From the IMG/VR virus record IMGVR_UViG_3300027754_003435: a stretch of DNA of 64,000 bases, one strand, 5' to 3'. Below are positions 4,885 through 54,718 of the stretch, in pieces (position 1 is the stretch's first letter; each line of letters opens with the position of its first letter). Position numbers and translations under genes: made by a program. The stretch comes from a virus. The notes under the pieces are model-generated. The model saw only the letters and a program-made list of their open reading frames with translations, ran no database searches and was not told the DNA's origin.

Positions 4885-7176
4885 TTAACTTTTATCTATG
4901 ATTTGATAAACTGTTTTTATAAATCTTTTCTTAACTGGATCATTTGGGCTATTACCCATTTCCTTGAAAAACGCATTGTAATATTTTTTTAGTGCGTCTG
5001 ATGCATCAGGTGGTATTTCATTGTATTGTAACATTTTCAATATTGATTTATCAGTTTCCATTGGAAAATTCGATCTCATTTGTTCTACAAATTCTTCTGC
5101 ATGAGCACCAATTTCCATAGTATCAGACAAATATGTTTTCCAAAAATTTGGATCATCTTGCGATAAACGATTATATGTGGTCGGCTTAATTGTAAAAGAA
5201 TTTAAAAATTCCTTTACTCTTTGTACATAATGTATCAACTCATGTGCAATAGCAGGTAAAAATACTTTCTTAACAAATTCTGATATTATACTATCAACGG
5301 AAGTTTCAATTGAACCACGCTTTGCAAGTTGTATCTTTACAAAGAATGGAACAAATTCAAGTGTGAAATATATTGCAAATTCCATATTATCCAAAGGGTT
5401 AGCACCAGAAGTCCCCATCGAAGCACCGCCAGAGAACTCATCACTATTTGTAGAAAATTGTGTCAACTCAGAATTAAATTTTGTATAATTTATTTTATTG
5501 TTTAATTCATATTCTGAATCAAAATCGGTATCAAGTAAATGTTCTATTTCCAAAGAGAATCCTGCATTTTCTTTATCTTTACCATTTTTAAGACAATACT
5601 GTAAAACTTTTGTTATTTCAGGAAATTTGGCATCAAGCGAACCTCCAAGTTCAATATTAACAGATTGTAATTTAATACTATTAGAAATTTTTTCACCATA
5701 TTTTTTAATATAGTCTTCGTTTCTAATCCAACGGTTTACAATTGATGTAATATATTGTTGATTTTCAAGTCCAGATTCGGTTTTAGAAACTATAATACTC
5801 TTAAATCCATTAAAACTAGAATCTAATCGTATTAAATCAGCAATTTCCGTAAAAAGTTCTATGGCAACTGGTTCTATTTCTTTCAATAAACCAGTCGGTA
5901 ATGTTGCTACTTCATTTATTTGTTCTACTTCTTCTGTTATAACAGATTCAAATACTTTATCATATTTAATATCTTCAATAGTTATAGAATCATCATTAAA
6001 TAATATATAATCATTCCAATTATTACTTATCCTATTTTTTAAACCATCAACGCCATTATTAAATAAAAATAAAGAAGCGTATTTATCACCACCTAAAATT
6101 CTTGATAAAGTTTTGTAAAATAACCAACCACTATAAGCAAACTTAACAACTTCATCAGAATTTTTACCATACCCCTTAATTGATTCTACAATTTTATTAA
6201 CTATATCTTCTTCAACTGGATTCTGTGTGTCTATTAAAACATATTCTTTTTTATCTTTAAAAAGTTTTACTTTATATAAGTAATCACCGTACTGATTGTG
6301 TGGTATATTATCAGAAAAATAAAGCCCATATCCATATCTTTGTCTATTACTATCAACACTAACATTTGATATATCAAACTTATGAAGATTTTTTGAACTT
6401 CTGTGATAAGCTATTATTTCTTCTGTTATAACAGATTCATATACTTTATCCCAAAACTTTTTTGTTATCATGTGAAGTGGTCTTAACTCGCCTTTCTTTT
6501 TCTTTTTTACTTCAATCATTTCACCGCGTTTTACATTCATTCTTGCAACAACTGTATTAAAAATCTGAGCATCAAACCAACCAAAAATAGAAATAAAACG
6601 AGATTTTAATTCTGTTAGTTTAGCAGTTCTATCACCCAATGCTTTTTGAATATTTTCTTGATTCATTTGTCCAAAGCTGGGTATATTATAAACAACATGA
6701 TTTGTAATTACATAATATAAATAAGGATTTTGAATATCTTTATAAGGTAAATTAGAAGCCTTATTATACTTAGTTAACCGCTTGAATTCATTTAATTTAC
6801 CGATATTATCTTTTCCAACTGCGTATATAACTACCGTATGTGTTGAATCGAAGTCTTCTAATAATTCAAGTGGATTATAAGGATTTGTTGTTTTAATAAC
6901 ATTCTTTACATTATGACGTTTCATTATAGCGTTTTTTTCTGCAAACGTAAGTGGTTTTCTAATAGCGTCTTGCATATCATCGGTAACAATATACACACTA
7001 TCTGAACCAAATCTACGGCATAATCTATCATATTCTTCTTTATGGTGCAAAGCCATTGGATTAAAAGTACCTGGATATAAAACAATAATCTGTTTATCTA
7101 CCAAATCATTTTCATTGAAGATAGCAAGATTCATTTCTTTTATTAATTGTAATACTTTATTTTTCACTTTATGCAT
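4885..7176 (-). CDS. Polyvalent protein: cytidylyltransferase-like (HIGH-type) + ADP-ribosyltransferase-like + zincin metallopeptidase
   Basis: LYPGTFNPMALHH (HIGH variant); AYHRSS...F...GYGLYFS...GVDG...YILF (ART-like); HELIHYVQ...Y...EIGAHAEE (HExxH zincin). Confidence 0.7.
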   Translation of the reverse strand: MHKVKNKVLQLIKEMNLAIFNENDLVDKQIIVLYPGTFNPMALHHKEEYDRLCRRFGSDSVYIVTDDMQDAIRKPLTFAEKNAIMKRHNVKNVIKTTNPYNPLELLEDFDSTHTVVIYAVGKDNIGKLNEFKRLTKYNKASNLPYKDIQNPYLYYVITNHVVYNIPSFGQMNQENIQKALGDRTAKLTELKSRFISIFGWFDAQIFNTVVARMNVKRGEMIEVKKKKKGELRPLHMITKKFWDKVYESVITEEIIAYHRSSKNLHKFDISNVSVDSNRQRYGYGLYFSDNIPHNQYGDYLYKVKLFKDKKEYVLIDTQNPVEEDIVNKIVESIKGYGKNSDEVVKFAYSGWLFYKTLSRILGGDKYASLFLFNNGVDGLKNRISNNWNDYILFNDDSITIEDIKYDKVFESVITEEVEQINEVATLPTGLLKEIEPVAIELFTEIADLIRLDSSFNGFKSIIVSKTESGLENQQYITSIVNRWIRNEDYIKKYGEKISNSIKLQSVNIELGGSLDAKFPEITKVLQYCLKNGKDKENAGFSLEIEHLLDTDFDSEYELNNKINYTKFNSELTQFSTNSDEFSGGASMGTSGANPLDNMEFAIYFTLEFVPFFVKIQLAKRGSIETSVDSIISEFVKKVFLPAIAHELIHYVQRVKEFLNSFTIKPTTYNRLSQDDPNFWKTYLSDTMEIGAHAEEFVEQMRSNFPMETDKSILKMLQYNEIPPDASDALKKYYNAFFKEMGNSPNDPVKKRFIKTVYQIIDKS
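5929..5961. repeat. 33-nt direct repeat copy 1 (encodes DKVFESVITEE; contains palindrome TCTGTTATAACAGA)
   Basis: 32/33 identical to 6418-6450; copies 489 nt apart, in frame. Confidence 0.95.
6418..6450. repeat. 33-nt direct repeat copy 2 (encodes DKVYESVITEE)
   Basis: 32/33 identical to 5929-5961. Confidence 0.95.
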
Positions 7177-43288: not shown

Positions 43289-45169
43289 TTATTTCTCAAC
43301 TATATCGTCATATATACTTTTCAGAGCAGAATTTAATTTTCCTGTATTTTTTGATGTAATTTTTTTATAGTAATCGTTTACTGCAGGAGTTCTTCTAAAT
43401 TTACCATTCAATTGTGATATTACTTTTTGTGGTTGTCCAGTAGGAGTACATTTTAATAGTCCAAATAGTCCATCTTCACCAAATTTCCAAATAGTAGTAA
43501 CTTTAACTGTCATATCAGTTCCGTTTGCAGCAATACCACCATTTGTATTTCCACCCATGTGAACACACGTACCATCTGGATTTAAGAATATCAACATTTC
43601 CACGTGACCACCTTTACTTACAATAGCTGTTTCCCACCCACAAGTTAATAAGTGCCGTATTAAAGCAAGTCCTTCTTTAGTCATACCATTCGCAGTATAG
43701 TGATATTCTTCCCAAAAAAAGCAAACAATTGGATCTGGTAAATATTTTTCATAAACTGTTATTGGTAACTTTGGTCCAGAAAGTGTTGTTGTTTGTTTTA
43801 TCTTATAATCCAATAAAATCGGATCACCTGGTCCAGTTGTACCATCTGGATTTGTAATTGTAGTTTCCTGATACTGATCAAGTAGGGTTGGGTCGGTAGA
43901 TAAACCATCTTCATCTATTTGTCCTTCTACTTTTTGTCCTCTTTTAGTTTTTTTTCCAACTTTTAAATTTTTTGTTAGAATTTTTTCTTCTGTTATAACA
44001 GATTCTTGCGCTTCTGTTTTGAAATAGAATGCTCTAGCTCTAACAGCATCCGCACTTGATCTACCAGCAAAAGAAATTTTATCAAAACCAGGTACTAATT
44101 GTTCTTTACCATTTATTATACAAGCAGGTACTCCTGCAAAACCACCGCCTTCTGGAAATGGTATTTTTTTTGAATGATTCCATCCCGCTCCATTACCTGC
44201 TGCAGCTCCTGTTACAGATGTACCTTTAAATGCTTTATATTTACCGGCTCTAACATAAAAATTAGTAGAAAGTCCGCACCACCAAGGTTCATCTGCCCAA
44301 GTTGCATTTTTACCATGTTTACCACCATACGTTCCAATTGTAAATTCACCACCCTTATTATATACAGACATAGTCATCATCATCAATTGTTCGGTATTTT
44401 CTTGTCCAACATAAGGTACTATTGGATTCCATATACCAGTCTCTGGAAAGTTTAGAAATAACGGAACATCTATAACACCCTGTGGTCCCTGTGTAAATCC
44501 AGTTGCTCCACTATATAAAGTAGTTTCCGAAGCATTAAATTTATATGGAACAAAAAATTGAATTGGTCCAGCCCATTGTTCTAATTCCCATTTTGGAAAG
44601 CCCGAACCTTGCGGGTTCGCGTTAACGCCTCGATACGCCCAATATTTTCCACCTAATTTTCTATCGACTCCATAAACTTTTTTTACCCAAGGATTACCCG
44701 CAAGACTCACATTCTGCCATATAAAATTCCAATTAGCAACTTGGTAATTTGTAACACTTGTACCTGCTGGTGGTTGAGTATTACTTCTTGATAATTCTAT
44801 ACTTTTTTGGTCAGTCATTGCAGCACTTTGTTCAACATTTTCATCCGCCTTTGCAGGTGTTGTATTGGATTTTTCCTTAGCTTCATTTTTTTCATTTGGT
44901 GTAACAACAGGTGGTGTAACAACAGGTGGTGTAACAACAGGTGGCGTAACAACAGGTGGTGTAACAACAGGTGGTGTAACAACAGGTGGTGTAACAACAG
45001 GTGGTGTAACAACAGGAGTTGGTGTTGGTGTAGGTGTTACAGTAGTTCCTTGACCTACATTACTATCACCACCTCTATCTGGATCGTAATCTATTAATAT
45101 AGTTTTTCTTTCAGAATTACTAACACTTGGATTTTCATCTTCAACATCATACAATATAAGATCTGCCAT
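43289..45169 (-). CDS. CHAP/NlpC-P60-like peptidoglycan hydrolase with Pro-rich linker
   Basis: PWWCG (Cys at 44276-44278) and GGHVEML...MGGNT (His at 43604-43606). Confidence 0.6.
   Translation of the reverse strand: MADLILYDVEDENPSVSNSERKTILIDYDPDRGGDSNVGQGTTVTPTPTPTPVVTPPVVTPPVVTPPVVTPPVVTPPVVTPPVVTPPVVTPNEKNEAKEKSNTTPAKADENVEQSAAMTDQKSIELSRSNTQPPAGTSVTNYQVANWNFIWQNVSLAGNPWVKKVYGVDRKLGGKYWAYRGVNANPQGSGFPKWELEQWAGPIQFFVPYKFNASETTLYSGATGFTQGPQGVIDVPLFLNFPETGIWNPIVPYVGQENTEQLMMMTMSVYNKGGEFTIGTYGGKHGKNATWADEPWWCGLSTNFYVRAGKYKAFKGTSVTGAAAGNGAGWNHSKKIPFPEGGGFAGVPACIINGKEQLVPGFDKISFAGRSSADAVRARAFYFKTEAQESVITEEKILTKNLKVGKKTKRGQKVEGQIDEDGLSTDPTLLDQYQETTITNPDGTTGPGDPILLDYKIKQTTTLSGPKLPITVYEKYLPDPIVCFFWEEYHYTANGMTKEGLALIRHLLTCGWETAIVSKGGHVEMLIFLNPDGTCVHMGGNTNGGIAANGTDMTVKVTTIWKFGEDGLFGLLKCTPTGQPQKVISQLNGKFRRTPAVNDYYKKITSKNTGKLNSALKSIYDDIVEK
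43985..44005. repeat. Third copy (21 nt exact) of the ESVITEE repeat core
   Basis: TTCTTCTGTTATAACAGATTC, identical to the first 21 nt of 5929-5961 and 6418-6450. Confidence 0.95.
44898..45017. repeat. 15-nt coding tandem repeat, 8 units (PVVTP)
   Basis: GGTGTAACAACAGGT x8 with two single-base variants. Confidence 0.97.
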
Positions 45170-53929: not shown

Positions 53930-54718
53930 CTATGGTTCTAAATTTCTCATTAAACCAATAAGTTCTTCACTTATTGATAAATTTGTAAGATACGCAACAC
54001 CTTCTTTTTGCATAAGTTGTATTAATTTTTTACCAACTTGATTTTGCAATGGACTTTCCAATATACTTTTACCTTTTCTAAAAAGTTGAAGCATCAAATC
54101 AGAATATTCTTCTGAATCAGAACTGTATGATTTGTTATTATCAACTACATGAAAGTGTTGATTTCCAAAATAGCTTTGGAAAGCACCAATGTTATGTTGA
54201 ACTTCTTCCCATTTCTTTGCTACTATCATTGGTGGTACTTTTCTTGGACGCATTTGATTTCTTTGTTGAGCTATATCTAATGAAGTATTTACCATTACCA
54301 TGTCAACATCATATCCCAATGAATGTAACATACTTGAAACTCTCTGAATTTTAGGTAAATCTGCACCAGTTCCATCGATAAAAACAGGTAAACAACCGTT
54401 AACTATCTGAAAAAACTGATTTGAAGCCATTAATTTTGCTTTTTCTCTCTGAAACATCTGTGTAGAATATATATCAGAACCAGGGTCCATTATCAATGGA
54501 AGATTGTTTTTTTTCAATAAAAACTCGTAAAAAGTGTCAGAATTAACTACTTTTACCCCAAATGGACTGATTCCACCCGCTGTTGTACCTGTTAAAACCC
54601 CCAATACGAATCCTTTACCAGATCCAGGTCCACCGCCAAGAAACACTGCTTTGAATATGTTCTTGTCATGCACACTTTCTTTTAGTATACCTTCTATTAT
54701 TTTTTTTAGCTTAATCAT
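53930..54718 (-). CDS. Zeta-toxin/AAA_33-like P-loop kinase
   Basis: FLGGGPGSGKG, VVNSDTFYE, FIDGTG, VNTSLDIAQQRNQMRPR. Confidence 0.75.
   Translation of the reverse strand: MIKLKKIIEGILKESVHDKNIFKAVFLGGGPGSGKGFVLGVLTGTTAGGISPFGVKVVNSDTFYEFLLKKNNLPLIMDPGSDIYSTQMFQREKAKLMASNQFFQIVNGCLPVFIDGTGADLPKIQRVSSMLHSLGYDVDMVMVNTSLDIAQQRNQMRPRKVPPMIVAKKWEEVQHNIGAFQSYFGNQHFHVVDNNKSYSSDSEEYSDLMLQLFRKGKSILESPLQNQVGKKLIQLMQKEGVAYLTNLSISEELIGLMRNLEP

Follow-up and report, generated by a model that had tools for sequence, protein, structure and literature searches.

Background

The prohead protease gp21 of phage T4 cleaves its substrates after glutamate, reportedly at a (L/I)-x-E consensus (Black et al. 1994), and the short N-terminal capsid-targeting leaders of the T4 internal proteins are likewise said to end in [LI]xE (Mullaney and Black 1996). 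In polymorphic toxin loci a conserved junction peptide stands at the point where toxin modules are exchanged (VENN in CdiA, PxxxxDPxGL in Rhs), and in Rhs it is also a site of proteolytic release. The ADP-ribosyltransferase (ART) Alt, which is packaged into the T4 head, is trimmed by gp21 at an N-terminal ITE (ITE-6) and a C-terminal LTE (LTE-619; PMC5694885). Polyvalent proteins combine unrelated enzyme domains in one polypeptide encoded among late or virion genes, and their co-delivery with the DNA and proteolytic release have been proposed (Iyer et al. 2017, PMC5512222). At the DNA level, the promoter(early) stem-loop elements (PeSLs) are short stem-loop repeats flanking insertion, deletion and replacement differences between close T4-type relatives; exchange at them requires general recombination, and modules can travel from one genome to another on excised mini-circles (Arbiol et al. 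2010, PMC2839356). Domain shuffling is the presumed origin of polyvalent phage proteins, but the events themselves are rarely seen. Here we describe one in a 64,000-nucleotide stretch of viral DNA (IMG/VR record IMGVR_UViG_3300027754_003435; hereafter the window), which corresponds to positions 75483-139482 of a complete 177,312-bp virus record: an ART domain, bracketed by an in-frame direct repeat within the 763-aa protein P0001, is present, absent or replaced by another version of itself among co-circulating relatives.

The repeats enclose exactly one domain

The open reading frame (ORF) list and its translation place the P0001 gene at 4885-7176 on the minus strand, between terminase and tail-fibre-like genes. 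Inside it, the segments 5929-5961 and 6418-6450 are identical at 32/33 positions (34/36 over 5926-5961 versus 6415-6450) and lie exactly 489 nt apart in the same frame. Sequence comparison thereby bore out the structure reported in an earlier note on this DNA, together with its palindromic core and a further copy elsewhere in the window (see below). The elements concerned are:

4885..7176, minus strand: P0001 gene, coding for a leader, a nucleotidyltransferase-like domain, the probably inserted ART domain and a C-terminal HExxH domain; 25 homologues
6418..6450, minus strand: repeat copy 1 in reading order, DKVYESVITE/E (the slash marks a predicted cleavage point); probable native host linker, left cassette junction and recurrent mosaic breakpoint
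5962..6417, minus strand: ART-PolyVal domain, 152 aa, probably inserted; present or absent among relatives; identified by a model with a predicted local distance difference test score (pLDDT) of 94.1, Foldseek, and PF18760 in homologues
5929..5961, minus strand: repeat copy 2 in reading order, DKVFESVITE/E; probable duplicated linker, right cassette junction

The view that the repeats enclose a whole ART-like domain gained support from both structure and sequence. Modeled alone with AlphaFold2, the 152 enclosed residues form one compact domain, which in Foldseek searches retrieves ART folds of the H-Y-E type, namely those of diphtheria toxin, tankyrases and PARPs (template modeling (TM) score 0.34-0.5). 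The best match is a chain of the cyanophage A4 pre-ejectosome (PDB 9k3a_B, 1071 aa, E 6e-5), a hint that ejection proteins of unrelated phages can contain ART-like domains. The window's own domain has no Pfam match at E <= 0.01, and 14 of 19 aligned homologues, which are 27-72% identical to it, match PF18760 (ART-PolyVal; best E 3.1e-10). Two ART signature elements are in place, a His in the first strand (AYHRS) and the aromatic residue of the G-x-G-x-Y-F motif (YGLYFS), with H5 and Y33 nearly invariant. A search of 1.8 billion representatives recovered 191 relatives of the domain, including stand-alone proteins of 150-260 aa and domains in giant proteins as long as 5,566 aa. In these relatives the domain begins and ends where the enclosed piece does, with I-[IV]-A-Y-H at the start and I-x-I-E-x-I-K-Y at the end; hence, the repeats enclose exactly one domain. 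An intein or other protein-splicing insert, which would call for Cys, Ser or Thr as first residue of both insert and C-extein and for a terminal His-Asn, was considered and rejected, given that the insert starts Ile-Ile-Ala, ends Ile-Lys-Tyr and is followed by Asp, and that its fold is ART, not Hint.

The module is lost, gained and swapped in nature

A protein search with P0001 returned 25 homologues; taken together with the window protein, they comprise nine long forms (eight clusters and the window protein) and 16 short-form clusters of 585-596 aa. The short forms are without the 163 residues, and the junction falls exactly at the repeat, as expected of the precise in-frame loss that the earlier note had predicted. 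The close short forms all read ...FW[DN]KV[FY]E[SNY]VI[TK]EE[VIE]EQINEVATLP..., which fuses the flank to the left of copy 1 with that to the right of copy 2, and L010 and the 16 short-form clusters share the reading ...FW[DN]KV[FY]ESVITEEVEQINE.... The five homologues most remote from P0001, at 53-59% identity in the search, are short without exception and have one related linker, FWNKVYE[SN][VI].., and for this reason we regard absence as ancestral, the linker as native to the host gene and the domain as inserted.

When the long/short label is mapped on trees built from the N- and C-terminal parts, at least six changes are required, of which well-supported branches force three or more; the label clusters no more than shuffled labels do, and the two trees disagree. 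Comparison at base resolution locates the change-overs. The window and L008 share 66% nucleotide identity in the N-terminal part and 99.6% in the cassette, whereas the window and L004 share 97% in the N-terminal part, 82% in the cassette and 97% in repeat 2, with change-overs about 20-40 nt from the repeats; taken overall at base resolution, this distance is about 15-40 nt. The long form P0009 and the short form P0021, both from one sampling project, are 92-100% identical in every 50-nt bin on both sides and thus form a near-isogenic pair. In turn, P0009 and P0005 have cassettes that are 100% identical over most bins on N-terminal parts that are just 48-78% identical, and the right-hand change-over of P0009 lies within about 100 nt past repeat 2. 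In the metagenome Ga0208975, two long forms with different cassette types (L029 and L031) coexist with a short, empty form (L030). An assembly artefact can be dismissed since the same structure recurs in more than 10 independent assemblies.

Hence, the module is precisely lost or gained and swapped among co-circulating relatives, and the conserved linker regions are recurrent crossover zones. The claim of an exchangeable module thereby stands, with the restriction that only one kind of domain is seen at the site among the 25 homologues; the further suggestion that other domains would be found there was not borne out. Divergent mosaic blocks extend past the P0001 gene. The genes upstream of the homologues in L026 and L027 also differ, with DUF5907 and a 52-aa ORF in one and Phage_tail_APC in the other. 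A larger mosaic block, ending at repeat 1, therefore includes the divergent N-terminal allele.

A possible route to the duplicated linker

The stand-alone ART gene P0031, which is 67% identical to the cassette and the closest of the stand-alone genes whose DNA was retrieved, reads ...GYITEE/IVAYHRS...IKYDPY-stop (the slash here marking the junction), and its sequence ACAGAAGAAATA recurs unchanged at the cassette's left junction. On the right, the cassette finishes with ...IKYD, after which the host sequence KVFESVITEE begins. Repeat copy 2 always opens with D. The corresponding residue is D or N in copy 1 and in the short forms, and N in every distant form, a pattern that fits a D codon of donor origin at the right junction.

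From these junctions we infer the direction and mechanics of the insertion as follows. An ART-PolyVal domain would have been inserted in frame into the linker in one sub-lineage through two offset junctions, the left one formed at short homology in ITEE and the right one at 3 nt of microhomology in the shared Asp codon; the offset between the junctions would have duplicated about 30 nt of host linker (KV[FY]ESVITEE). Ribosomal bypass between the repeats was also considered and rejected, a gap of 489 nt appearing far beyond known hops.

The linker as a probable prohead-protease site

The earlier note had read the encoded ESVITE/E as a protease linker that frees the enclosed domain, a proposal that the genome makes credible. 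A homologue of the gp21-type prohead protease (PF03420, 103.6 bits; genome 71791-72216) and a gp23-type capsid protein are both encoded just upstream of the window. The repeats encode KV[FY]ESVITE/E, in which ITE is the very tripeptide at which T4 Alt is trimmed. P0001 contains ten [LI]xE motifs, four of which fall at predicted boundaries (IKE12, ITE250, ITE413 and INE420). The outer two correspond to the following elements:

7135..7176, minus strand: N-terminal leader MHKVKNKVLQLIKE, a candidate capsid-targeting and cleavage sequence (IKE/M)
5911..5919, minus strand: INE/VATLP, a putative second I-x-E site; N, E and VATLP nearly invariant (alignment columns N421-P427)

The leader, M..VL.LIKE/MNL, is kept in alleles whose N-terminal parts are 52-62% identical. 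The broader pattern M..KL..[LI][LI].E occurs at 13 of the 199 predicted N-termini of the genome as against 0-3 in internal windows of the same size, and has the appearance of a T4-type leader for capsid targeting and cleavage. Besides P0001, genes with the pattern lie at window 53930-54718 and at genome positions 11367, 21865, 64796, 65345, 101867, 118291, 146011-148767, 156055 and 157989; the set includes ART-like genes and a vertex-protein-like gene. The gene calls of two P0001 homologues, P0008 and P0017, begin at MNLSIF, directly after the predicted leader cleavage site IKE/M, which could represent an alternative start or a leaderless variant. Among stand-alone ART homologues that bear a leader, 16 of 44 have an [LI]xE ending 1-4 residues before the ART domain, compared with 2 of 78 copies situated within large proteins and 5% expected by composition. 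These patterns, all drawn from sequence, make it likely that P0001 is targeted to the prohead and cut into its constituent enzymes.

Domain architecture of P0001

Direct Pfam and PHROG scans of P0001 gave no useful match, and the same was true of P0002, the protein carrying the third copy of the motif (see below). The DNA of the P0001 gene matched none of the deposited phages, and a protein comparison with the same phages matched the N-terminal domain only, in two of them. The full-length AlphaFold2 model is poor, with pLDDT <50 across residues 218-422, which span the linker and the cassette. The remaining elements of the protein are:

6532..7095, minus strand: nucleotidyltransferase-like (cytidylyl/adenylyl-transferase-like) domain, residues 28-215, identified by identity to a Mel-JY01 protein and weak structure matches
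6451..6531, minus strand: Lys-rich part of the probable native interdomain linker, with pLDDT <50 in the full-length model; found in long and short forms alike
4888..5910, minus strand: C-terminal domain, residues 423-763, with HELIH at 5230-5244; possible zincin-type peptidase

Residues 28-215 share 44.9% identity with a Microcystis phage Mel-JY01 protein that is annotated "cytidylyltransferase like" and weakly match structures of phosphopantetheine adenylyltransferase (PPAT) and nicotinic acid mononucleotide (NaMN) adenylyltransferase (E 0.02-0.9). This PPAT/NaMN-adenylyltransferase-like domain (6532-7095) adjoins an ART, i.e., a consumer of nicotinamide adenine dinucleotide (5962-6417), in one polypeptide; a functional pairing of the two, with local supply or use of an adenylylated nucleotide, is a speculative reading. 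In the C-terminal domain the HELIH motif (H645 E646 L647 I648 H649) is nearly invariant across the aligned family. The model of this domain resembles stand-alone viral proteins of 208-241 aa and yields a weak Peptidase_U49 lead, and sequence searches returned neither a PDB match nor a Pfam peptidase family; the domain is possibly a zincin-type peptidase. With at least two unrelated effector-type domains in one phage polypeptide encoded among virion or late genes, P0001 belongs with the polyvalent proteins.

The palindromic core and the third copy

The repeat contains a perfect 14-bp palindrome, TCTGTTATAACAGA, of which the window has three exact copies and the rest of the complete 177-kb genome none. 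Allowing up to two mismatches, the window has six matches against 0.49 expected, a number that 0 of 100 shuffles reached, and the heptapeptide ESVITEE has 3.4e-4 chance occurrences expected in the phage proteome. The earlier note took the palindrome for a recombination or integration site, an idea that its sequence context does not favor. The 21-nt motif consists of the codons GAA TCT GTT ATA ACA GAA GAA, each of which makes up 30-84% of its synonymous set here, such that an independent ESVITEE would be written in identical codons with P = 0.02; writing S-V-I-T-E in commonly used codons is enough to produce the palindrome. Perfect 14-bp palindromes number 27 in the genome compared with 25 in shuffles, i.e., no enrichment, and the hairpin is weak (-2.8 kcal/mol; z between -1.2 and -2.9, and in P0001 -1.2 to -1.8). 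ESVITEE is kept in both copies in most of the long forms examined. In other relatives the palindrome is broken, with ENVITEE in L009 and P0006, ESAITEE in P0006 and ESVIKEE in P0009, and the linker peptides of the distant homologues are incompatible with it. Among the close relatives available, conservation is as high in the flanks as in the repeats. Another perfect 14-bp palindrome, ATAGTATATACTAT, has three copies outside the window (genome 150112, 150291 and 151041), all within a 1-kb stretch with few or only short ORFs, and is possibly a regulatory site.

The third exact copy lies in the gene for P0002 (ORF 43289-45169, 626 aa):

43985..44005, minus strand: third exact 21-nt copy, encoding ESVITEE, at the start of the variable linker of P0002

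The exact copy was confirmed; its proposed setting, an insertion of about 85 aa in a CHAP hydrolase, fared less well. The motif stands at the start of a variable interdomain linker (residues ~393-468) that separates two conserved blocks, a region that does not amount to a demonstrated inserted domain, and the flanks of this copy are unrelated to P0001. The CHAP-like nature of P0002 is a weak lead that comes from Atlas feature scores for CHAP/NlpC-P60 of 0.87-0.89, with a structural TM score <0.5 and a model pLDDT of 0.30; neither the Pfam nor the PHROG scans gave a CHAP or NlpC-P60 match. The gene precedes gp25- and gp6-like baseplate genes, and P0002 is probably tail-associated. The large protein search found two relatives only. 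One, the 80%-identical P0028, has ESVTTEE, which breaks the palindrome one base away, and small indels further on; the other, 34% identical, has a shorter linker and is without the motif. With these two, no insert polymorphism was found at this position, and no true P0002 homologue was found in the contigs of four relatives. Residues ~44-97 of P0002 (window 44879-45040) form a Pro/Thr/Val-rich tandem (PPVVT)n run, whose copy number varies, P0028 having about 21 fewer residues there.

Exact 21-mer scans of viral and metagenome contigs recovered the P0001 homologues and four unrelated ORFs (L021, L032, L033 and L035). In these four, GAATCTGTTATAACAGAAGAA is read in frame as ESVITEE (L033:6807-10217, minus strand; L021:3682-3960; L032; L035). 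One of them is a 1130-aa gp6-like baseplate protein from a distant 211-kb myovirus, and another is on a contig with 62% G+C, a composition at which codons of this kind are unusual. On a rough estimate, we take the four to be coincidences at the scale of the database, produced by a heptapeptide in common codons.

Weighing the explanations

The evidence is best accommodated by a model that we consider probable, in which an ART domain was inserted in frame with duplication of the linker, general recombination moves the resulting module and the linker is a gp21-type site. P0001 would be a multi-enzyme, polyvalent protein of a T4-like phage, in which a leader precedes a nucleotidyltransferase-like domain and a long linker joins the latter to a C-terminal HExxH domain; it would have acquired an ART-PolyVal domain that is otherwise encountered as small phage genes with leaders and as part of giant polyvalent proteins. 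In the DNA, homology for general recombination, for which the genome encodes a RecA/UvsX homologue, or for replication slippage would come from the repeats and the conserved sequence around them, allowing precise deletion of the module, its restoration from a co-infecting relative or the swapping of alleles, with the consequence that natural populations would contain genomes with the module, without it or with a variant of it. In the protein, each repeat copy would supply I-T-E/E, a site of the T4 gp21 type; P0001 would enter the prohead via its leader and be cut into separate enzymes delivered with the DNA. Several points weigh against parts of this model. [LI]xE is a weak motif, with a frequency of about 1.3% per position in the family in addition to its ten occurrences in P0001, and the ESVTTEE of the P0002 relative does not fit it. 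The poorly modeled residues 218-422 are uninformative on the exposure of the linker. The right junction is reconstructed from just 3 nt of microhomology and a donor with 67% identity. The data do not separate recurrent deletion from recombinational transfer. Further, the third copy of the motif is too improbable for chance within one genome, and its origin is left unexplained by the model.

In one alternative, favored by the chance frequency of [LI]xE and by the general mosaicism seen in the disagreement of the two trees and the blocks of divergence beyond the gene, the duplication might be a neutral by-product of one illegitimate insertion, the linker might not be a protease site at all, and the polymorphism might reflect ordinary homologous recombination with occasional repeat-mediated deletion. 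We hold this to be unlikely, though less so than the other alternatives, given that ITE coincides with the gp21 site of Alt, that [LI]xE is enriched directly before the ART domain in the stand-alone homologues, and that the leader IKE, INE/VATLP and, in most long forms, both copies of ESVITEE are conserved. Alternatively, a cleavable linker might be a substrate of the C-terminal HExxH domain of P0001 itself, either prior to packaging or following injection, with no part for the prohead protease. The near-invariance of HELIH, the Peptidase_U49 lead and the model of Iyer et al. (2017, PMC5512222), in which metallopeptidase (MPTase) domains release the other domains of polyvalent proteins, would be consistent with such self-processing; however, sequence searches place the domain in no peptidase family, the linker conforms to the Glu-specific consensus of gp21, and stand-alone ART homologues that have no HExxH domain share the placement of [LI]xE, which together make self-processing quite doubtful.

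A more far-reaching alternative, and the one to which the earlier note was inclined, is a dedicated in-frame domain-cassette system, with the palindrome as the recognition site of a specific recombinase or nuclease acting at several genes. The three exact copies in one genome, far beyond chance, their position at interdomain junctions in every case and the precision with which the cassette is gained and lost at the site all speak for it; yet the palindrome follows from codon usage, decays by substitution in relatives and is absent from distant homologues, its hairpin is weak and palindromes of its length are not enriched. The motif borders the ART-PolyVal domain in 0 of 150 other contexts, and a single domain type occupies the site. 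As for a recombinase elsewhere in the genome, the RecA/UvsX homologue is present, and the complete genome encodes neither a tyrosine (PF00589) nor a serine (PF00239) recombinase, controls being positive, in a search that covered these two families alone. In an integron-like system, a core conserved at the nucleotide level would be common to different cassettes, while here it is broken in L009, P0006, P0009 and P0028. A homing-endonuclease target was likewise rejected since the site is kept intact on both sides, unlike such targets. A dedicated recombination or integration system using the palindrome is thus not supported, and we regard it as highly improbable. We give equally little credence to the variant in which the ESVITEE-coding sequence is an attachment site where a hypothetical phage or host enzyme inserts and excises domain cassettes in frame at several genes; were it true, this would be an integron-like system for protein domains, with the third copy as an empty or used site. 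General recombination or repeat slippage, both well known in T4-type phages (PMC2839356), suffices without a dedicated system.

Comparison with known systems

At this locus an effector domain of a phage polyvalent protein is gained, lost and swapped in frame, an unusually clean natural case in which the mediator is a duplicated linker, probably also a target of the prohead protease. The locus captures a single event with both of its junctions, the ancestral site in its empty state, nearly isogenic alleles that carry or lack the module within one sampling project, and swapped versions. We suggest the rule that, where a protease-site linker is duplicated on insertion, the new domain would arrive already releasable and removable, which suggests a possible design principle for loading enzymes into T4-type heads. 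This offers a testable model of how capsid-delivered effector sets may be gained, lost and kept polymorphic, perhaps under pressure from host defenses.

The gain and loss of an enzyme module proceeds here by ordinary recombination and not by a new kind of recombination system. Like the PeSLs, the P0001 repeats flank insertion, deletion and replacement differences between close relatives; however, PeSLs are intergenic promoter-terminator units that move whole genes, whereas the P0001 repeat is coding, in frame and linker-encoding, has a weak hairpin and moves one domain. With the polyvalent proteins, P0001 shares its multidomain organization, including an ART of the PF18760 family and an HExxH domain. 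Iyer et al. inferred shuffling from architectures, whereas here one gain/loss event is seen with its junctions, duplicated linker and segregating alleles, and the suggested cutter is a gp21-type prohead protease and not an MPTase. T4 Alt is a separate gene product with an ART of another family, whereas the ART predicted in P0001 is internal to a three-domain protein and would owe the ITE sites on both of its sides to duplication. As in the polymorphic toxins, a short conserved coding motif at the boundary of an effector module provides homology for replacement; those systems replace C-terminal tips via silent downstream bacterial cassettes, whereas the P0001 module is internal, bounded on both sides, and present or absent as a unit.

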